DNA of 64,000 bases from Candidatus Hydrogenedentota bacterium (lineage in GTDB: Bacteria > Hydrogenedentota > Hydrogenedentia > Hydrogenedentales > JAEUWI01). Every line of letters starts with the position of its first letter. Within the stretch, counting starts at the first letter, position 1. The stretch covers positions 233,824 to 297,823 of the forward strand of contig JAXMOL010000001.1 of assembly GCA_034669905.1 (NCBI GenBank), written 5' to 3'. The position numbers were made by a program, and so were the translations under genes. The notes beneath the pieces were generated by a model, which searched no databases, was not told where the DNA came from, and saw only the letters and a list, made by a program, of their open reading frames with translations. Below are positions 3,103 through 12,988 of this stretch, one piece after another.

Positions 3103-6100
3103 TCACCCCACTGCCACCAGCAGCCGCAACTCGCTGCCTTCCACCGTCACCACCTTGGCATCTCCGTCCGCCGCACCGCTCACCAGCGAATTGGCCAACA
3201 CTTCCTGGGCGATATACTCGCGGAAGCCATCAATCGCCTCGTTCAACGATGCATCGTCGGTCGCATAGGTCACGGCGATGCGCGCGTCGTAGGCGAGGTT
3301 TTGCTCTTTGCGGATGTCCTGCAGGGCGCGGACCACTTCGCGAACCAAACCCTCTTTCCGCAGTTCGTCGGTGATTTCTGTGGCGATGACCACCACCAAC
3401 TGCTTGCCCTGGGCGGCGGCGAAACCTTCCTTCGGCGTGAGGCGCACGTCCACTTCATCGGCGGTGAGCACTTCCGGCTTACCATTCACTTCGATGGTGA
3501 TGCCGCCATCCTGCACCTGGGCCGCAAGGGCCGCCCCATCGGCACCGGCGAGGGCCTTGCGGACCTGCTGGACGTTCTTCCCGAAGCGGGGTCCGAGGAC
3601 CTTGAAGTTGGGCCGCACTTCGTAGGAAACGTATTCTTCCGGGCTGTCCGTGAAGGCCACTTCCTTGATGTTCAATTCTTCCTGGATAAGGTCGAGGTGT
3701 TTCTCGAGGGCAGCGCGCTGGTCGGCATTGGCCACGACGAGTTCGCAGAGCCCCAGGGGCTGACGCACCTTGATGTTTTCTACACGGCGGGCACTGAGTC
3801 CCAGCGTCACGGCCTCGCGGGTGAGGGCCATCTGGTCCAGCAGCCCATGGTCAATGGTGGCCCCGTCGGCTACCGGGTAGGTCGCCAGGTGGACACTGTC
3901 CGCCGCACCAGCCACGGGTTTCGCCAGGTTGCGCCACGTCACTTCTGCGAAGAAGGGCGTGAAAGGCGCGGCCAGACGGGCCAGCTTGATGAGGCATTCG
4001 TAGAGCGTCCAATAGGCATCGGCCTTGTCTTCGCTCCAGCCACTCGCCCAGAAGCGCGCACGACTCCGGCGCACATACCAGTTGGAGAGGCTGTCCACAA
4101 AGCCGGAAACTTCACGGGCTGCCGGGTAGGTTTCGTAGGTATCCAGGGCACCCCGGGCATCGACGATAACCCGGTCGAGCTCGTTGAGGATCCACTGATC
4201 CAACTCAGCGCGTTCGGCCACCGGGCGATAGACCGCATCGCCCCCGGTGCCCCCGGCAGGTGCGGCGGCGGGGTCGGCGAAGAGTTCTTTCAACACGGCC
4301 TGGGGCGCACTGGACGGATCAAAGCCATCCAGGTTCGCATAGATCACGAAGAAACTGTAGACGTTGTACCAGCGCATCAACAGTTCGCGCTGGGACTCTT
4401 CCACGATGCGCTCGGAAAGGCGGCTGCTGTTCGTGGGCGGGTTCTTGGCGATAAAGCTCCAGCGCAACGCGTCGGCACTGAACTTTTCGAAAAGGAGGCC
4501 CGGCTCGCTGTAATTCTTCAGACGCTTCGACAACTTGAGGCCGTCTTCCCCGAGGATGTGTCCGAGGCAAATGCAGTTTTTGAAGGGATGGGGCCAGGGG
4601 CCTTTTTCTTTTCCATGAACCACCGTGCTGATGGCCAGCAGGGCATAGAACCAACCCCGCGTCTGGTCAATGGCTTCACTGATAAAGTCGGCCGGGAAGC
4701 GCTCGTTGAACTTTTCCGCAGAACCTTCCACGTGGGGATAGCCCCACTGGGCGAAGGGCATGGAGCCCGCGTCAAACCACACGTCGATGACTTCCGTCAC
4801 ACGGCGCATGCGCCCTTCAGGATCCTTGGGACTCTGGAAGGTTACGGCATCGATATAGGGCTTGTGGACCTTGAGGTGCTCACTGAGTTCGGGTGTTTCG
4901 GCCTTGGCCTGCTCCCAGACCTCGGTGCCTTCGAGGCCGGGCTTGGCGAGCAACTCGTCGTAGGAGCTGATGCATTCCATGTGGCCCGTCTTGTCGCAAA
5001 TCCACACGGGCAGGGGCGTACCCCAATAGCGCTCGCGGGACAGGGCCCAGTCCACGTTGTTTTCGAGGAAGTTACCAAAGCGGCCATCGCGGATGTGCTG
5101 GGGCTGCCAAGTGATCTCCTTATTATTCGCCACGAAATCGTCTTTGAACTGGGAGGTCTTGATAAACCAGCTCTTCCGCGCGTATTGGATGAGGGGATCA
5201 TTCTCCGCACGGGGACAGAAGGGATAGGAGTGTTTGTATTGCTCGTGTTTAAAGAGGTGTCCCCGCTCTTTCAAGACACGGAGAATGCCCTTGTCCGCGG
5301 CCTTACAGAACTGGCCCGCAATGGGGCTCTGGTCGTAGGGGTCCACATCGGTGACGCGCTCGTCGAAGGTGCCATCGGGCTTCACATAACAAAGGAATCC
5401 AATGCCGCTTTCCTTGCAGACGCGGTAATCGTCTTCACCGAAGGCCGGGGCCATATGGACGATGCCCGTACCGGTTTCGAGGTCCACAAAATCACCCGCG
5501 ATAACCATCCAGTGTTTTTCGGAAACCGCGTCGGGATTTTCCATGGCGGCCGGGGTGCCGTAGTTAAAGAGGGGCTCGTAGCGCACACCCAGGAGATCGC
5601 TCCCCTTGAGCGTCTGAACAATCTCCGCCTCTTCGCCGAAATACTTGCTGACGAGGGCCTGGGCGAGAATCAGCATCTCGTGGCCGGATTCGGTCGCGTG
5701 CTTTACCACGGCGTAGTCCGTCTCGGGGCCCACGCACGCCGCGCAGTTGCTCGACAGGGTCCAGGGGGTCGTCGTCCAAATGAGGAGACCCGCGTCTTCC
5801 CCTTCCAGGTTGAGGGCTTGCTTGCCATCCTCCGTGAGGGAGAGTTTAATCGTGACCGCGGGGTCGTCCACGTCGCGGTAGCCTTCACCCACTTCGCCCG
5901 CCGAAAGGGCTGTGCCGCCCTGGGCCCACCACCACACGACCTTATGGCCCTGATAGAGGAGGCCCCGGTCGAAAAGTTGCTTCAGGGCCCACCACACACT
6001 CTCCACATAACTCTGGTGGAAGGTGACATAGGCCTCGTCCAGGTCTACCCAGAAACCAATACGGTCCGTGAGTTGTTCCCATTCCTGCTTATAGCGGAAG

Positions 6101-6489
6101 ACCGACTCAATGCAGGTGCGGTTGAACTTCTCCACGCCGAATTCTTCGATGGCTTCTTTACCGCCATCGATGATACCCAGCTCTTTGCAGACCTCGATTT
6201 CCACGGGCAGTCCGTGGGTATCCCAGCCGGCTTTGCGCTCGCAGAAATTGCCCGACATAGTCTTGTAACGGGGGAAGATGTCTTTGATGGTGCGCGTCAG
6301 GCAGTGGCCCGGGTGGGGCATCCCGTTGGCCGTGGGAGGCCCTTCGTAGAACACGAAACGGGGCGCATCTTTCCGCTGTTCCAGACTTTTTTTATAGGTC
6401 TGGTGTTCTTTCCAGAACGCGATGGTCTCCTTTTCCGCCTCGGCAAAGTTAAAGGGGGACGGGACCGGTTCAAAGGCATCGTTAGACAT
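3103..6489 (-). CDS. ileS: Isoleucine--tRNA ligase, type 2 (eukaryote-like)
   Basis: FYEGPPTANGMPHPGH (HIGH), GWDTHGLPVE, WTTTPWTL, DWALSRERYWGTPLP, KLSKR (KMSKS), long type-2 C-terminus. Start reassigned to MSNDAF at 6489. Confidence 0.97.
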   Translation of the reverse strand: MSNDAFEPVPSPFNFAEAEKETIAFWKEHQTYKKSLEQRKDAPRFVFYEGPPTANGMPHPGHCLTRTIKDIFPRYKTMSGNFCERKAGWDTHGLPVEIEVCKELGIIDGGKEAIEEFGVEKFNRTCIESVFRYKQEWEQLTDRIGFWVDLDEAYVTFHQSYVESVWWALKQLFDRGLLYQGHKVVWWWAQGGTALSAGEVGEGYRDVDDPAVTIKLSLTEDGKQALNLEGEDAGLLIWTTTPWTLSSNCAACVGPETDYAVVKHATESGHEMLILAQALVSKYFGEEAEIVQTLKGSDLLGVRYEPLFNYGTPAAMENPDAVSEKHWMVIAGDFVDLETGTGIVHMAPAFGEDDYRVCKESGIGFLCYVKPDGTFDERVTDVDPYDQSPIAGQFCKAADKGILRVLKERGHLFKHEQYKHSYPFCPRAENDPLIQYARKSWFIKTSQFKDDFVANNKEITWQPQHIRDGRFGNFLENNVDWALSRERYWGTPLPVWICDKTGHMECISSYDELLAKPGLEGTEVWEQAKAETPELSEHLKVHKPYIDAVTFQSPKDPEGRMRRVTEVIDVWFDAGSMPFAQWGYPHVEGSAEKFNERFPADFISEAIDQTRGWFYALLAISTVVHGKEKGPWPHPFKNCICLGHILGEDGLKLSKRLKNYSEPGLLFEKFSADALRWSFIAKNPPTNSSRLSERIVEESQRELLMRWYNVYSFFVIYANLDGFDPSSAPQAVLKELFADPAAAPAGGTGGDAVYRPVAERAELDQWILNELDRVIVDARGALDTYETYPAAREVSGFVDSLSNWYVRRSRARFWASGWSEDKADAYWTLYECLIKLARLAAPFTPFFAEVTWRNLAKPVAGAADSVHLATYPVADGATIDHGLLDQMALTREAVTLGLSARRVENIKVRQPLGLCELVVANADQRAALEKHLDLIQEELNIKEVAFTDSPEEYVSYEVRPNFKVLGPRFGKNVQQVRKALAGADGAALAAQVQDGGITIEVNGKPEVLTADEVDVRLTPKEGFAAAQGKQLVVVIATEITDELRKEGLVREVVRALQDIRKEQNLAYDARIAVTYATDDASLNEAIDGFREYIAQEVLANSLVSGAADGDAKVVTVEGSELRLLVAVG

Positions 6490-7005
6490 GGAGCAGGCTT
6501 CCTTCGCTAGGGGCGACGGGTTGTTGTGTTTATACCGGGAGCAATACGCACTTTCCGCCCCGAAAACAGGTTCCGGCACCACAGAAAGGGATTAAACGGC
6601 CGAAAATGGCGTACCAAGCCCAATATGATCGCTTTTCAGGGCCAGATCATGCAACTTTTGGACGAATTTGGGGAATTGGGCGGTGTGAAGCGGGGCGATA
6701 GCGTGGCACGGTCGGGTTACTGCTATTCGTCACGGCACCATGTGGCACCGGTCACAGGGCAGGCCTTTCAATATCATGAGCAGTCAACCAAGAAATAAAA
6801 CGACAAGCCTTCGTGCCACGCGTTCCGGTATATCGCAACGTGTGTAGGGCGCAAGGCTGGGCGGTGCATGGTAGCGATCTGAACCCTCTGTATCTCAACA
6901 CGAGACCATCACGAGAGTGGAAGAGCGCGGATTGCCGCGACGAAGGCGGGAGGTGCGTGGCGTAAGTTGTGGCAATCTAATGGTGTTAGGACAATCACAC
7001 GTTTT

Positions 7006-7021
7006 TGGCACGGTGCTGGCT
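7006..7021 (+). promoter_or_regulatory. Sigma54 (RpoN)-like -24/-12 promoter, copy 1
   Basis: TGGCACG-GTGC-TGGCT versus consensus TGGCACG-N4-TTGCW; GG and GC correctly spaced; conserved in copy 2. Confidence 0.7.
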
Positions 7022-7117
7022 TCACACTCCCATACGCCGTGTGGCGTACGAACAATTGAACGTAAACGTCGATGAATCCATCCGCGATTTGCAGGGAAAA
7101 GCCAGGAGGAATTTACT

Positions 7118-7252
7118 ATGAACACTATCGAACTCAACGAACTGAACCATGAAGTGACTGTCGAAGAAGCCAACAACGTTGTCGGCGGCTACAAACTCAA
7201 GAACGTCGTGGTTTCCAGTTACAAGCTCAAAAACGTCGTTGTATCCAGTTAA
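7118..7252 (+). CDS. 44-aa double-glycine-leader peptide (RiPP/bacteriocin-like precursor) with duplicated core
   Basis: AGGAGG RBS, then MNTIELNELNHEVTVEEANNVVGG|YKLKNVVVSS|YKLKNVVVSS*. The two core units differ only at synonymous positions. Confidence 0.88.
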   Translation: MNTIELNELNHEVTVEEANNVVGGYKLKNVVVSSYKLKNVVVSS

Positions 7253-7334
7253 GGTGCCTGCGGCCTGTTCGGTGGCCCGCGCCACCTGATAGTAGTCCGA
7301 GACGGCCCAATACGGATACGAGATTAACGACCAC

Positions 7335-7383
7335 AAAAACGGCTGGTGCCCCGCACATCGTGGGCGCACCGCCGTTTTTTTTT
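7335..7383 (+). terminator. Intrinsic terminator, peptide unit 1
   Basis: aaaaacggc-t-ggtgc...gcacc-gccgttttttttt hairpin plus T9 tract. Confidence 0.85.
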
Positions 7384-7668
7384 GTATGGGTGGCCCGCGA
7401 ATCGACAAATCGGCATTGTGCGCCTCGAATCCCGATTGGACCAAGCACCAGCCCAAAGGATGTCCCCAAGGGTCGTGCCGCACGAACCGGTATCTCGGTA
7501 TCATTCGCCCCGTGCAAGGATGGGCGTTGCATAGTATCGAACTGAGGCCACCGTGTCTGAACACGAGACCATTGTAAGAATACGATACCCCGGCCTGGCC
7601 CGTCGGAGACGGGAAGTTCGCGGCGTAAGCCGCTGAATTATATGGGTGTTATGACAATCATACGTTTT

Positions 7669-7684
7669 TGGCACGGCGCTGGCG
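7669..7684 (+). promoter_or_regulatory. Sigma54-like -24/-12 promoter, copy 2
   Basis: TGGCACG-GCGC-TGGCG, same position relative to the ATG as in copy 1. Confidence 0.65.
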
Positions 7685-7780
7685 CTACATTCCTATACGC
7701 CGTGGGGCGTGCGAGCAATTGAACGTAAACGTCGATGAATCCATCCGCGATTTGCAGGGAAGAACCAGGAGGAATTTACT

Positions 7781-7951
7781 ATGAACACTATCAAAATCAA
7801 AGAACTGAACCATGAAGTGACCGTTGAAGAAGCCAACAACGTCGTCGGTGGCTACAAATACAAACTCACCAACGTCGTAGTTTCCAGTTACGATACCTCC
7901 GGTCAAGCCGACGCTACTCGCCGCAACCCATCGCTCAAAACGAGTCGTTGA
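7781..7951 (+). CDS. 56-aa double-glycine-leader peptide, paralog of 7118-7252
   Basis: AGGAGG RBS; MNTIKIKELNHEVTVEEANNVVGG|YKYKLTNVVVSSYDTSGQADATRRNPSLKTSR*. Confidence 0.88.
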   Translation: MNTIKIKELNHEVTVEEANNVVGGYKYKLTNVVVSSYDTSGQADATRRNPSLKTSR

Positions 7952-7985: not shown

Positions 7986-8031
7986 AAGAACGGCAGGTGC
8001 CTGCACAATGTGCATGCGCCGCCGTCTTTTT
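7986..8031 (+). terminator. Intrinsic terminator, peptide unit 2
   Basis: acggc-a-ggtgc-c-tgcac-aat-gtgca-t-gcgcc-gccgt followed by cttttt; homologous to terminator 1. Confidence 0.75.
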
Positions 8032-8202
8032 GTTCGGAAGAACAGACCGACGTCCGGCAACTTTGGTGGGTCTTGATTCCTCTTGGAACTAGATCTGGGG
8101 GACTCTTTTGCCGATGGCCATTCGTATTTCAGTATCTAATTCGCAAGTTAAACCACCCCGAGATTCCAGCCGCAACCAGATAACCCCCACTCGGTGACGC
8201 CC

Positions 8203-10155
8203 TCAGGGCACCACGTGGTAGAGGTTATAGGGCTGACTTTTCAGCACGGGCTCCAACTGCAGCCTCATCTCACTCGGGGCCAGGATATAGTCAAACCCAT
8301 AGGCCTCGGCGAGGACGTGCCACTCCTCTTTCGTCCGACTGGGCCAGCTGGCAAGGGGTTCCTCCGTCATATCCCCATCCACAGGAAAGCCGTAGACATC
8401 GGCGTGCATCTTCTTGAGGCTCGGGGCCAGATAACGCAGGTAGGTCATGTGGTGAGCGGCCTGGTAGTCCGCGAAAATCGGATGGCGGGTTTTGGCGAGC
8501 CAGGCCACGTCCCAATAGGGCGGTACAAGCATGGCATCCGACTCGCCCCGTTCGGCGAGATAATCTACCACCTCCTGCTGCAAGGGGTGGACGGGCAGCT
8601 GTTCCCGATGGGCGAGTTGGCCCACGAGGAGTTGGGCTCCCAGGGTCAGTAAGAGGATTCCCTGGTAGGCACCTACCGGCCCGGCAAGCTCGCCCAACTT
8701 CTCGAAGCGAATAAGCACCGCTGCCACGACCAATCCCGCAACCAGAGCGGCCAGCGCAAAGGGCGATAGTCCCGCGAGGAGAAAAGCGCCGCACACGGCA
8801 AAAAGCAGCGGGAGGAAGAGCGAGCGCCCGTGCACCATGCGTGCATAACCCAGGGCGGCCAAAGCACCGCCACACAGGAGCCACAGGGCCGTGTCGGGAT
8901 TGTTGAAGTAGCGGGTCGCCAAGCCTTCGGGGAGTATCACTTGCCAAAGAGGACCGAGGGACACCCACAACAAGATCAGGCACACAAAGATGCGGGAAGC
9001 AAAGGGGGGCCAATCGTTGGTGCCTGGCGTCCGCGCCAGCAATCCCAGGGCCAGGGGCACCAACAGAATGGCCAGGTGATTGGTCAGGCGGTAGGGCATC
9101 CAACCCAACAGCAAGAAGGGTATCTCCCCGCCGACCACCTGATGCACCAGCCAGATGAGTCCCACAACGGTGGCGAGAATGCCCGCATAGAGCGTGACCC
9201 AGCCTCGGTCCCGTTCTCCCATGGCCTGTCCCCGCTCCAGGGCGAGGCTGCCGCCGGCCATCAACAAGACCAGCGCCACCCCCACTCCACTTTTCCAGAA
9301 GGGATTGAGCCGGGCGAAACCGCGATGGAGATCATAGCGCTCCGTGTAGGCCGCCCAGATGGCGTGGGTATCACCCGTGGCCGCGTAGGCCCCTTCGGTG
9401 GGCAAGGGCACGTGAAGACGCGACTGGATGGCGTAGAAAATCACGCAGGGCACCAATCCCAAAGCGAAATAGCCCAAGGCCTGCACGACCCGCCTATGGT
9501 CCCGCTGATAGCAATAGATAAGCCACTGCACCCCGGCCACGGCCCCAATAACGGGTAGTTGTCCGATATGGATGGCCACCATGAGCCCCAGGAGAAGCCA
9601 GACGGTCCGCCAGCAATCATAGAGCAACAGGGCAAAGACCAGTAGCGCGTAGCCCGTGCCGATTTGTCCGATGGCATACATGTGGGGCCAGGATTCGATA
9701 GGGTAGTAACTCTGCAGGCCCTGATGAATGCCCAACAAAACCAATACGACAGCGATATGGCCATACCACGTCTTTCCGGAAAAACGGGTGCCCAGCAAGA
9801 AGACCGGTACGGTGCAGAAAACAAGCTGGAGCACGTTGCGGTAGCCATTCACGAGAAGGGGCGAATCCACGAAGTGCAGCACCAGCGCCGACAGGTAGCT
9901 CTGCCCACTGAAGACATTCCGGCAATATTGATAGCAGGGATGGCCCTCGGGATAGGGCACGAGGCCCGTGATCAGGAGGGCGTGCTCATAGGTCTCTTCC
10001 CAGCGAACGCCGCGTAGTGCGACGGCGAAAAGTGAAAAAGCGACCCAGCCGAGGCTGCCATACCACAATGATCGAAAGTCGATGGACTGCTTTTCTTGTT
10101 GACGTGCCGAGGAAATAGCGATGGCTCCCGTAGTGCGTTGGAAGGAAGGCCCCAT
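8203..10155 (-). CDS. Polytopic membrane protein, probable GT-C-fold glycosyltransferase/polymerase
   Basis: About 13 hydrophobic segments, acidic EETYE in the first loop, C-terminal periplasmic domain ending YGFDYIL; start uncertain. Confidence 0.6.
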   Translation of the reverse strand: MGPSFQRTTGAIAISSARQQEKQSIDFRSLWYGSLGWVAFSLFAVALRGVRWEETYEHALLITGLVPYPEGHPCYQYCRNVFSGQSYLSALVLHFVDSPLLVNGYRNVLQLVFCTVPVFLLGTRFSGKTWYGHIAVVLVLLGIHQGLQSYYPIESWPHMYAIGQIGTGYALLVFALLLYDCWRTVWLLLGLMVAIHIGQLPVIGAVAGVQWLIYCYQRDHRRVVQALGYFALGLVPCVIFYAIQSRLHVPLPTEGAYAATGDTHAIWAAYTERYDLHRGFARLNPFWKSGVGVALVLLMAGGSLALERGQAMGERDRGWVTLYAGILATVVGLIWLVHQVVGGEIPFLLLGWMPYRLTNHLAILLVPLALGLLARTPGTNDWPPFASRIFVCLILLWVSLGPLWQVILPEGLATRYFNNPDTALWLLCGGALAALGYARMVHGRSLFLPLLFAVCGAFLLAGLSPFALAALVAGLVVAAVLIRFEKLGELAGPVGAYQGILLLTLGAQLLVGQLAHREQLPVHPLQQEVVDYLAERGESDAMLVPPYWDVAWLAKTRHPIFADYQAAHHMTYLRYLAPSLKKMHADVYGFPVDGDMTEEPLASWPSRTKEEWHVLAEAYGFDYILAPSEMRLQLEPVLKSQPYNLYHVVP

Positions 10156-10237
10156 TATAGACGGGAGCACGTGCAAATTATAGGCAGAAAAATGGGCCTT
10201 TGCAGCGCATCGGGCAGGAGCGCGGGGTAGTTGCAAT

Positions 10238-10266
10238 CTCGTTCCCAAGCGCTGCCTGGGAATGCA
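10238..10266. repeat. REP-like palindrome (CTCGTTCCCA..TGGGAATGCA family)
   Basis: ctcgttcccaagcgctgcctgggaatgca; related copies at 2906-2934, 52162-52190 and 58630-58657. Confidence 0.75.
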
Positions 10267-10270
10267 GCCC

Positions 10271-10720
10271 CTATAGCGCCTTTACCAGAAAAAACTTGCT
10301 GTTCCCCTGGGAATCCCAATCGGCCAACTCGCCCCTGACCACATAGCCCGCCGCCTGGTAGAATTCCGGCGCCTGATAGGCCATCGTGTCCACATAAGCA
10401 TGGCAACAACCCCGCGCCACCGCAATGGCCTCCGCCATTTCGAGAAGCGCACGGCCGATGCCCTGCCCGCGCAAGGCTTCCTCCACGGCCATGACGTCGG
10501 TCTTGAGCCACGTGAATTGGGTCGTTCCGAATAGCCCACCCACCACTGAGCCTTTGCCGTCATAGGCAAGCAATTGGATAGGTACCGCCTCGTTCTCTGT
10601 GCGCTCCCGGGCTTCCCAGAACGCCGGGTTGGCCCGTTGGTTGTGGTTGCGAAGGATCGTAAAGACCGTTTCCTGGTCGGCGTCGTGCATGTCATCGATG
10701 GATTCAATCTGAAAACGCAT
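10271..10720 (-). CDS. GNAT family N-acetyltransferase
   Basis: AVEEALRGQGIGRALL acetyl-CoA motif; DTMAYQAPEFYQAAGY. Confidence 0.92.
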   Translation of the reverse strand: MRFQIESIDDMHDADQETVFTILRNHNQRANPAFWEARERTENEAVPIQLLAYDGKGSVVGGLFGTTQFTWLKTDVMAVEEALRGQGIGRALLEMAEAIAVARGCCHAYVDTMAYQAPEFYQAAGYVVRGELADWDSQGNSKFFLVKAL

Positions 10721-10858
10721 GGTGTATCGATTCCCTTTTTACGCGACCGCCCTGCGTCGCATGACTCCATTGTAGTCACGGCACGGGGCAAATCACAGGG
10801 GCGGCGGGCGCGGTGGCTATGCTATAGTGCCGGGCGTTACCGGTATGAAGGAATCTGC

Positions 10859-12988
10859 ATGGACGCACCCGAAGAATCGAATCCCCCCACCGCCCGCTGG
10901 GCCACCCTACGTGGCTGGTTCCGCCCGTGCGTGCCCGATGTTCGTCGTGCCCTGGCCCTCTTCGGGATGGCCTTTGTTATGGGGGTCGTCTATGTAAGCA
11001 CCTGGGGCGGCCCACCCGAATTCTGGCAGCAGATCTTCGGCCCCTCGGTCATGATGGCCTGTGGTGAAGGCTTCACCAATCCCCACCTCGACGACGTGCC
11101 GGGCCTCGAAGACTTCCTCTATCTACGCGCCGAGTCCTTCCCCTGTGAAAACATCCCCGCCGACGTCCGGCGCTTGCCGTCCGACACGAGTGCGATGGAT
11201 TACGATACGGTCCAGGAATTCCACCCCGAGCCCCAATTCAAGGGGTGGACCCAGTGGCAGCGTTTTCACCGCTATCTCTTGATGAGCGTGGCCCTGTGTT
11301 TCTACCTCTTCGGCGTGGCGTGGCAGTCCCTCGTGCCCCTCTATGGCCTCCTCTACGGCCTCACCAACGCCTTGGGCTATGGCCTCTTTCGGCTGGCCAT
11401 GGGCAGGCGCTGGGCGACCGGCTTTGCCCTCCTCCTCATGACCTCGCCGGTGCATTTGCAGCAACTCCCCCAGCTCCGGGACTACAGCAAGGCCCCCTTC
11501 TTCTTCCTGATCATGCTGATTATGGGTTGCTTACTGACACGCCCCTTGCCCCTCCGCCTTCAGGTGCCCCTGGCGGCAATGGCGGGATTCGTGGGGGGAC
11601 TCGGCCTGGGCTTCCGTCAGGATATTGCCTTTGCGGCCGCCGTCTTCTGCCTCTTGGTGGCCCTCTTTTCGCCGGGGCATATCAAGAAAACGTGGTGGCG
11701 ACGGGGCCTGATTATCACCGTATTCTTGGCAGCCGTTGCCGTGCTGGGAACGCCCATCGTGCGGGTGCTTTCCGGCGTCAACAACTCCACCCACGACACG
11801 ATTATCGGCTTCACCCACTATTGTGACGAGCGCCTGGGCGTGGAAGCTCCGCTCTATGATTTCGGCGACCCCTTTCTCGATGAATACGTGCGCGCTATCC
11901 TCATGGGCTATGCCCACCGCACCGAAGGGCGCACCGAAGTTTTCCGCCACTACTCGCCGGACTATGATGCCGCCGGAAAAGCCTACTTTCGCGACATCGC
12001 CACCACCTTCCCCGCCGATCTCATCGTGCGCGGCTACGCCTCGGTGCTCCGCATCGTCGACGAGCTCCAGATCAGCTCCGCCAACAACGCGCCCCGGGGT
12101 ATCACGAATCAGTTCGTGGCCCGACTCTATCAGTGGCGACAGGCCCTCCTCGATGGCATACCCGGCGGCGGACGTTATTACGTGGCCGCCATGCTGCTGG
12201 TGCTGGGCGCGATCAATCCCCGACTGGCCCTCGCCCTCTTTATCGCCATCATGATACTGGCGGGCTATCCGGCCCTGCGCTTCAGCGAGCGTCACGCCTT
12301 CCACATGGAAATCGTGTCTCTATTTGCCCTGGGTTTTCTCCTCCACGGCCTCTATCTCGCAGCGACCACGGGCTGGAAACGACGTCATGAATTCACCTGG
12401 ACGGCGGGCCTCCATGCGACCAAGGGCTACGTCCTCCGTGGTGCGGTCGTCGCCACCACCCTGGTCGCGCTCTTGCTGGTTCCCCTCTACACCGCACGAC
12501 TCTGGCAATCCCGCCAGGTACCGCCCCTCCTCGCCGCTTACGCCCAGGCCGAGCGGGAACTCGTGCGGACGGAAGTGACCCCGGTAGACGACACGACCGT
12601 GCAGATGGCCCTCCCCACCCTGGTCTCCCGGATGGGAGACGAAGGTCCCCTTCCCATGTATACCGAAGTGCTGGTCCTGGAATTTGCGCCGGGGGACACA
12701 GCGGTACCTGTCGATTTCACCTACGAAGCCGATCACCCCAACTTCTTGTTCAATCGGAGTATGACCGTGCCTGCCCGTTCGCAGGACACGGAACCCACCC
12801 ATCTCTACTATCCCCTCTACCACGGATTGGACGCGCGCTTTCAGGCCATTCGGCTTTCGAAGGCGGGACATGAACGTCTTCGGGGAGTCTATCGGCTCGT
12901 GGATCTCAGCGACCGGGGCATCTTGCTCAATGCCGTCTTGCCACCGGACTGGGAACGCGGCCCCTTCTACCAGAAGTTTTCACGATAA
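10859..12988 (+). CDS. Polytopic membrane protein, probable GT-C glycosyltransferase
   Basis: Many TM helices, LRDYSKAPF and GLGFRQD loops, large C-terminal soluble domain. Start reassigned to MDAPEES. Confidence 0.6.
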   Translation: MDAPEESNPPTARWATLRGWFRPCVPDVRRALALFGMAFVMGVVYVSTWGGPPEFWQQIFGPSVMMACGEGFTNPHLDDVPGLEDFLYLRAESFPCENIPADVRRLPSDTSAMDYDTVQEFHPEPQFKGWTQWQRFHRYLLMSVALCFYLFGVAWQSLVPLYGLLYGLTNALGYGLFRLAMGRRWATGFALLLMTSPVHLQQLPQLRDYSKAPFFFLIMLIMGCLLTRPLPLRLQVPLAAMAGFVGGLGLGFRQDIAFAAAVFCLLVALFSPGHIKKTWWRRGLIITVFLAAVAVLGTPIVRVLSGVNNSTHDTIIGFTHYCDERLGVEAPLYDFGDPFLDEYVRAILMGYAHRTEGRTEVFRHYSPDYDAAGKAYFRDIATTFPADLIVRGYASVLRIVDELQISSANNAPRGITNQFVARLYQWRQALLDGIPGGGRYYVAAMLLVLGAINPRLALALFIAIMILAGYPALRFSERHAFHMEIVSLFALGFLLHGLYLAATTGWKRRHEFTWTAGLHATKGYVLRGAVVATTLVALLLVPLYTARLWQSRQVPPLLAAYAQAERELVRTEVTPVDDTTVQMALPTLVSRMGDEGPLPMYTEVLVLEFAPGDTAVPVDFTYEADHPNFLFNRSMTVPARSQDTEPTHLYYPLYHGLDARFQAIRLSKAGHERLRGVYRLVDLSDRGILLNAVLPPDWERGPFYQKFSR

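Follow-up and report, generated by a model that had tools for sequence, protein, structure and literature searches.

A family of apparently exported double-glycine leader peptides with cores related to segments of Hcp and pilin-like proteins

Gene organization and coding status

The window analyzed here, a stretch of 64,000 nucleotides from a Candidatus Hydrogenedentota bacterium, contains two small genes that lie downstream of ileS (3103-6582, reverse strand) and are divergent from it. The features of this locus are:

6868..7891, forward strand: span of a tandem duplication of a promoter-plus-gene unit of ~360 bp, with copies at ~6868-7222 and ~7531-7891 that are 81% identical
7005..7020, forward strand: sigma-54-type -24/-12 promoter-like site of gene 1, with 1 mismatch to the consensus
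7104..7109, forward strand: Shine-Dalgarno sequence AGGAGG of gene 1
7118-7252, forward strand: ORF of gene 1, the stop codon ending at 7252
7118..7189, forward strand: double-glycine leader of gene 1, 24 aa (Val -12, Glu -8, Ala -7, Gly-Gly)
7190..7249, forward strand: core of gene 1, a 10-residue Hcp segment in two tandem copies (from translation and Hcp profile score)
7334..7384, forward strand: hairpin and T run resembling an intrinsic terminator, downstream of gene 1 (z -3.9; 0/200 shuffles), not picked up by a simple terminator scan
7668..7683, forward strand: sigma-54-type promoter-like site of gene 2, from a motif search
7767..7772, forward strand: Shine-Dalgarno sequence AGGAGG of gene 2
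7781-7951, forward strand: ORF of gene 2, with its stop in the 7904..7951 segment
7781..7852, forward strand: double-glycine leader of gene 2, 24 aa (from sequence and substitution comparison with the gene 1 leader)
7853..7903, forward strand: core of gene 2, an Hcp-matching 17-mer running from Hcp beta-5 into the intersubunit beta-6 (Hcp profile, Pfam, PDB)
7904..7951, forward strand: C-terminal tail and stop of gene 2, without significant Hcp match
7986..8034, forward strand: hairpin and T run resembling an intrinsic terminator, downstream of gene 2 (z -4.5; 0/200 shuffles)

As read from the ORF translation, gene 1 (44 aa) consists of a 24-residue leader ending in Gly-Gly followed by YKLKNVVVSS twice, and gene 2 (56 aa) of a nearly identical leader, the segment YKYKLTNVVVSSYDTSG and a 15-residue tail; the cores at 7190-7249 and 7853-7903 are thereby confirmed where the original prediction had placed them. 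The double-glycine leader consensus given in PMC6363468 is Leu(-12)-x3-Glu(-8)-Leu(-7), which the gene 1 leader meets with two conservative changes (Val -12, Ala -7). Each sigma-54-like site lies 112 bp upstream of its gene. A single copy of the duplicated unit occupies the same place beside ileS in the congener G004, and in four DNA sequencing runs of one study a contig, probably from the source sample, covers both genes with zero differences. No immunity gene is evident among the genes from ileS to the downstream membrane-protein gene, and no tailoring enzyme was seen beside the two genes. Two large multi-pass membrane ORFs of the window, at 8203-10248 (reverse strand) and 10574-12988 (forward strand), have no Pfam match, the second showing a weak resemblance to LA_3751-family glycosyltransferases.

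Between the two repeats of gene 1 there are 4 synonymous changes and no nonsynonymous ones. A similar bias is seen between the leaders of the two genes (pN 0.05, pS 0.26) and between the gene 2 core and that of its congener (pN 0.18, pS 0.69), and ten core comparisons together gave pN of 0-0.18 against pS of 0.21-0.69. This excess of synonymous changes supports the coding status of both genes, and indicates that they are real coding genes with cores under purifying selection, which acts on the peptide and not on the DNA. A mobile in-frame DNA element was also considered as the source of the copies, and was ruled out because the differences between them are mostly synonymous.

Relationship of the cores to Hcp

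For an independent assessment of the Hcp resemblance we used a profile of 14 Hcps found via Pfam and via the genome's own Hcp, without use of the cores. The 17-mer of gene 2 scores 25.4 bits at profile positions 99-115, a value reached by 0/2000 plain shuffles, by 0/2000 shuffles preserving odd and even positions, and by none of the 4,290,809 17-mers that the genome's long reading frames provide outside its own hcp frame; the match predicted originally thus holds against shuffled controls. The 10-mer of gene 1 scores 17.5 bits, reached by 0/2000 shuffles of either type and by 3/4,387,311 genome windows. As the leader of gene 2, used as a control, itself attained 16.7 bits (8/2000 shuffles reach this), a score near 17 bits is not proof by itself, and of the two matches only the longer can be relied on without further support.

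In a search of 24,736 Pfam models the only match of the gene 2 core was T6SS_HCP, at positions 95-111 and below the cut-off (E 0.11), and the gene 1 core had no match. A full Hcp domain of ~160 aa is not recovered (15.6 bits against a PF05638 cut-off of 23.5), the core covering only 95-111 of the profile. A profile built from 43 such peptides, and containing no Hcp, produced nine PDB matches at E up to 10, of which eight were Hcps or Hcp fusions, the best being EvpC (E 0.00048). A tblastn search of 7.3 Gb of plasmids with a family member retrieved five records, all of them Hcp genes. Atlas matches for the peptide were all under 0.9.

The original prediction had named phage tail tubes among the possible targets. 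The window peptide matched no tail-tube family in Pfam or PHROGs and had as its best PHROG a 58-aa baseplate wedge model (E 0.0017); one of the 43 family members touches a major-tail PHROG, weakly (E 0.084). The resemblance, as judged from these profile searches, is to Hcp and not to phage tubes generally, and the local relationship of the cores to Hcp is above chance. A separate candidate, the tail of gene 2 as a copy of the Hcp beta-2/beta-3 loop, was rejected, its score being reached by 311/2000 shuffles; two homologous tails are marginal against Hcp (56/2000 and 25/2000 shuffles).

The segment of P. aeruginosa Hcp1 that had been quoted in the prediction is found in register in PDB 1Y12 (chain residues 103-117). 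For A. baumannii Hcp the numbering from our alignment agrees with that in PMC4469607. The Tyr-x-Tyr-x-Leu-x-x-Val of the core aligns with L102, I104, L106 and V109, which that study lists as belonging to the hydrophobic core, and the Ser-Ser-Tyr-Asp-Thr-Ser-Gly that follows aligns with Ser112 onward, namely strand beta-6, which is described there as pairing with beta-2 of the neighboring subunit in a 24-strand ring barrel. Since its residues align with L102-V109 and then beta-6, the gene 2 17-mer is half buried core and half ring interface; since the second half is the intersubunit beta-6, edge-strand capping is structurally conceivable.

The Hcp register on which the original prediction turned is kept in 64 of the 66 short homologues. 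In this set, found with a motif profile so that the counts are partly circular, the Tyr two before Leu is kept in 49/64, the Tyr after the Ser pair in 57/64 and the closing Gly in 34/64. Eight of the 66 extend into the next Hcp strand to give a hairpin. Another eight, of 64, end three or fewer residues from the Ser/Thr-Ser pair, before most of beta-6, and the repeat unit of gene 1 also stops at the Ser-Ser pair.

Diversity of the cores and wider homologues

Further Hcp segments in peptides with such leaders, for which a survey had been proposed, proved to be common: among 74 distinct kin cores, 43 contain an Hcp segment that scores 17 bits or more, a level reached by 1/740 shuffled cores. Copies were seen of strand 1, of the loop preceding beta-3 together with the start of the helix, of the strand seen in the window, and of beta-7. 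Mean coverage is 33 for strand 1 and 4.8 and 6.6 for the two edge strands, on a profile measure biased toward high-information columns and hence in favor of strand 1. By eye, 28 kin cores carry motifs of DUF1559 prepilins, including a helical one, with Pfam E-values down to 1.3e-9, and six of the 28 are joined to a copy of Hcp strand 1. The DUF1559 proteins of the genome itself that are caught by the motif pattern have Leu-Ala in 47/47 cases where two of its peptides have Val-Gln, probably the planctomycete form of the motif; the peptides thus carry versions absent from the producer's own pilins. Across the genome there are about 50 prepilin-like genes of the DUF1559/H-X9-DG type, in which an N-terminal motif is almost invariant.

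About a quarter of the kin cores match, by eye, neither Hcp nor DUF1559, and several tails of kin cores without an assigned source may name further mimicked families. L020:1450-1623 and its relatives have cores ending in a conserved Gly/Trp/Tyr-rich segment.

With regard to the source of the window strand, the core is identical at 10-12 of 17 positions to one Hcp subtype, in an alignment (A7) selected with the core, and at 7 of 17 to the Hcp of the producer. Producers of genus g1 yielded only one own-type T6SS Hcp locus each in the A7 search, and do not appear to encode an Hcp of this subtype. Among 16 Hcps, of which 14 were chosen without the cores, the producer's own is the top scorer against the window core (BLOSUM 42 vs 39), so the core is not strongly non-self.

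When the window-type profile was run against 1.84 billion representatives, 79 matches were obtained, which by eye comprise 30 long proteins and 49 short ones; in 47 of the short ones a Gly-Gly-type leader precedes the strand. One homologue comes from a Paracoccaceae bin, so the family reaches at least the Alphaproteobacteria. Scans with the leader pattern recovered only close kin (4 loci in genomes and 1 in metagenomes), and three scans of viral contigs confirmed no precursor or Hcp relative. The amphipathic unit repeated in gene 1 is also in tandem in the homologues P0003 and P0008, and P0053 and P0069 are polyprotein precursors with several leader-plus-core units per chain.

Among the 30 long matches, 24 of the 79 are proteins with three to six tandem Hcp domains (P0010, P0011, P0012, P0014 and others). 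Exactly six domains, the number of subunits in the ring, are present in 17 of the 24. In some, a Planctomycete-extracellular N-terminal motif is weakly matched or there are dockerin, PKD, cadherin or RTX domains. These proteins are candidate natural single-chain Hcp rings deployed as surface proteins. The borrowed motifs of the peptides also recur in the large proteins P0046, P0050, P0080 and P0035. P0046 is a beta-helix protein of 628 aa with many inserted segments from Hcp, DUF1559 and other sources, and the set also has two strings of motifs that follow a planctomycete-type N-terminus, as well as a MopE-repeat protein in which four repeats contain the window strand.

Precursors, exporter and T6SS in the phylum

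The genome of the window has 10 precursors with this leader. This count is a minimum because contigs C47 and C38 (L008, L007) end within a tandem array of precursor genes, each ~250 bp long, that follows a single sigma-54-like site. Sigma-54-like sites lie 112-140 bp upstream of five of its six precursor loci, against 0.58% of random 420-bp windows, and RpoN is present. Two of the precursors, on contig C6, stand beside genes for a sigma-54 activator, an HlyD adaptor, a peptidase-containing ABC transporter (PCAT) and a protein partly homologous to TIGR04500, which scores 48.8 where the cut-off is 180. The PCAT combines two cNMP-binding domains with a C39 peptidase and an ABC module; its C39 domain is found at E 5e-38, and the catalytic Cys, His and Asp are visible in the translation. 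This cluster is unlinked to the window genes. No ATP-grasp enzyme, lanthionine synthetase or radical SAM enzyme was recognized among ten neighbors at the C6 locus, and none of the precursor loci examined had a recognizable receptor, sensor or immunity gene nearby. On the same contig the sigma-54 activator is preceded by genes for a small Gly-Gly peptide and for a 362-aa Cys-rich protein without Pfam family (L004:9197-10707), a trio conserved beside the exporter in kin, and an Arg-rich Gly-Gly peptide adjoins a 350-aa unannotated protein (L004:7446-8800).

Precursors are borne by 10 of 109 genomes of the phylum, all ten of which have a TIGR04500-like gene (E 1.1e-8 or better); the only congener without precursors, G005, also lacks this gene, and G010 has the exporter module and TIGR04500-like gene with no precursors detected. 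The gene content of the kin thus indicates that the exporter cluster tracks the precursors.

The original prediction saw no T6SS genes in the window, and nothing found here contradicts this; the Hcp and TssC of this genome are in a T6SS-like cluster on contig C9, outside which the window genes lie, and its Hcp domain is the only one. TssC was found in 9/109 genomes of the phylum, all of one genus. Eight of the 10 producers also have a T6SS, again all of one genus, and these kin are not independent. Two producers, G013 (88% complete) and G063 (92%, fragmented), gave no TssC match. A link between T6SS and precursors is neither favored nor excluded by this overlap. Hcp-domain proteins with N-terminal hydrophobic extensions occur in three members of the phylum that gave no TssC match (L066:1420-2130, L068:1444-2139, L069:1201-1917), each beside a similar repeat-rich gene.

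Functional interpretation

The two genes of the window belong to a real, selected and apparently undescribed family of exported-type peptides assembled from conserved pieces of Hcp and of pilin-like proteins. The reading that we rank first, though tentatively, is that these peptides are exported linear mimics of foreign proteins, directed at a receptor or sensor. The precursors would be co-expressed under sigma-54 via the enhancer-binding protein of the C6 cluster, cleaved after Gly-Gly and exported in one step by the PCAT with HlyD, so as to release unmodified peptides of 20 and 32 residues. It is conceivable that the peptides form a panel, each member presenting a motif that is conserved and usually buried in some abundant protein of neighboring bacteria, such as Hcp subtypes and DUF1559 pilins, and that the motif serves to deceive, activate or evade any system that recognizes such fragments. 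Mimicry is placed first because the copied segments are mostly buried and conserved with the edge strands under-used, because 8/64 window-type cores go no further than the beginning of the interface segment, and because the helical pilin motif is treated like the Hcp strands and the insertions in scaffold proteins suggest display. Motifs within large scaffolds such as P0046 fit display and not cell entry.

A more general proposal, which we regard as doubtful, is that several bacterial groups secrete or display an encoded library of the most conserved linear motifs from the weapons and pili of other bacteria; this would imply an undiscovered pattern-recognition system for Hcp and pilin fragments that is jammed, triggered or fooled by them. 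Mimicry, if correct, would point to receptors through which T6SS-armed or piliated neighbors are recognized by bacteria or by bacterial predators, and the peptides would be ready-made probes of 20-35 residues for finding such receptors.

The original prediction suggested that the strand could be a beta-augmentation decoy that poisons or caps the T6SS. As an assembly poison, the released strand would enter a competitor in the manner of a microcin, or meet secreted Hcp, and would pair with the free beta-2 edge to block ring closure, with sister peptides blocking pilin assembly; such peptides would be natural T6SS inhibitors. The part of this proposal that stands is the relation to Hcp, the register and, from the A. 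baumannii Hcp study, the mapping of the second half of the core to beta-6, a true interface strand, for which reason the reading is kept; the conserved Tyr and Gly and the hairpin extensions, with the circularity of that set in mind, are in its favor, as is double-glycine/PCAT export, the route taken by microcins. Its place as the main reading is not supported. The first half of the 17-mer is buried core, no phage tail-tube family matched the window peptide, the gene 1 unit and eight homologues stop before most of beta-6, strand 1 is favored over the less-copied edge strands, and the sister motifs from DUF1559 include a helical one. Moreover, T6SS tubes assemble in the cytoplasm, whereas the peptide is exported, and the producer itself retains a T6SS that looks intact and has a similar strand. 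A poison needs both entry to the target cytoplasm and protection of the producer's own T6SS, and we consider this reading unlikely.

Another improbable reading is that of a structural matrix or docking tag, in which the peptides would form cross-beta fibers, or dock on extracellular Hcp-domain surface proteins, for biofilm cohesion. The tandem amphipathic unit of gene 1, P0003 and P0008, the extracellular-type tandem-Hcp proteins and the Hcp-domain proteins with hydrophobic N-terminal extensions in the phylum are in keeping with it, and sigma-54 control is frequent for surface functions. Yet a generic fiber has no need for specific Hcp subtypes or helical DUF1559 motifs, and the one Hcp domain of the producer implies that it has no scaffold of its own.

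It is less probable still that these are ordinary microcins or pheromones whose cores were captured from hcp and pilin genes and whose target is now unrelated. The leader and exporter are standard, tails diverge freely, and the cores that match neither family would be at home in such a scheme. However, drift would be expected if the identity of the source were irrelevant, and the many independent motifs from two unrelated families stay near their sources, including the residues that face the Hcp core. Finally, chance convergence of an amphipathic Val/Ser-rich strand, which the original prediction had allowed for and which the sub-threshold Pfam score of the single peptide and the 16.7 bits of the control leader might seem to favor, is extremely improbable for the window cores and already refuted at the family level, with the shuffle, genome-window, PDB-profile, plasmid tblastn and kin-core results all against it and the longer members continuing into the next Hcp strand.

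Comparison with known systems

The closest parallels are the double-glycine peptides exported by PCAT/AMS systems, namely class II bacteriocins, microcins and ComC-type pheromones. By the consensus in PMC6363468 they share with the window peptides the Gly-Gly leader with near-consensus -12/-8/-7 positions; several precursors per C39-ABC exporter and the HlyD adaptor are also shared. Unlike them, the present cores copy Hcp and DUF1559 motifs, the promoters are of sigma-54 type and no immunity gene or receptor was seen near the loci examined. None of the curated family models is passed by these peptides, five of 43 family members matching Bacteriocin_IIc weakly. The export route is thus textbook and the cargo is not: we found no described peptide family made of cut-outs from unrelated structural proteins, and a search of open-access full texts returned no description of such peptides.

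PCAT clusters with cNMP domains and a TIGR04500 PpiC-related protein share with the C6 locus the two cNMP domains, C39, ABC, HlyD and a partial TIGR04500 match. TIGR04500 is listed with graspetide loci in PMC8939145. The C6 locus differs in its TIGR04500 score, which falls far short of the cut-off, and in that no ATP-grasp, lanthionine synthetase or radical SAM gene was recognized among the ten neighbors scanned.

The T6SS tube protein Hcp/TssD (PF05638; PDB 1Y12, 3EAA, 4W64) shares with the peptides the residue register from beta-5 into beta-6. Here only 10-17 of ~160 residues are present, from which no barrel or ring is possible, and the peptides differ further in bearing a cleavable-type leader and in sitting outside the T6SS cluster.

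In the choice of what is copied the peptides recall the MAMP epitopes flg22 and elf18, which are short stretches of abundant bacterial proteins, conserved and normally hidden inside them. Those epitopes are fragments of the real protein and are sensed by plant receptors, whereas the segments described here are separately encoded copies instead of fragments of the protein they resemble, and no receptor was identified near the loci examined.
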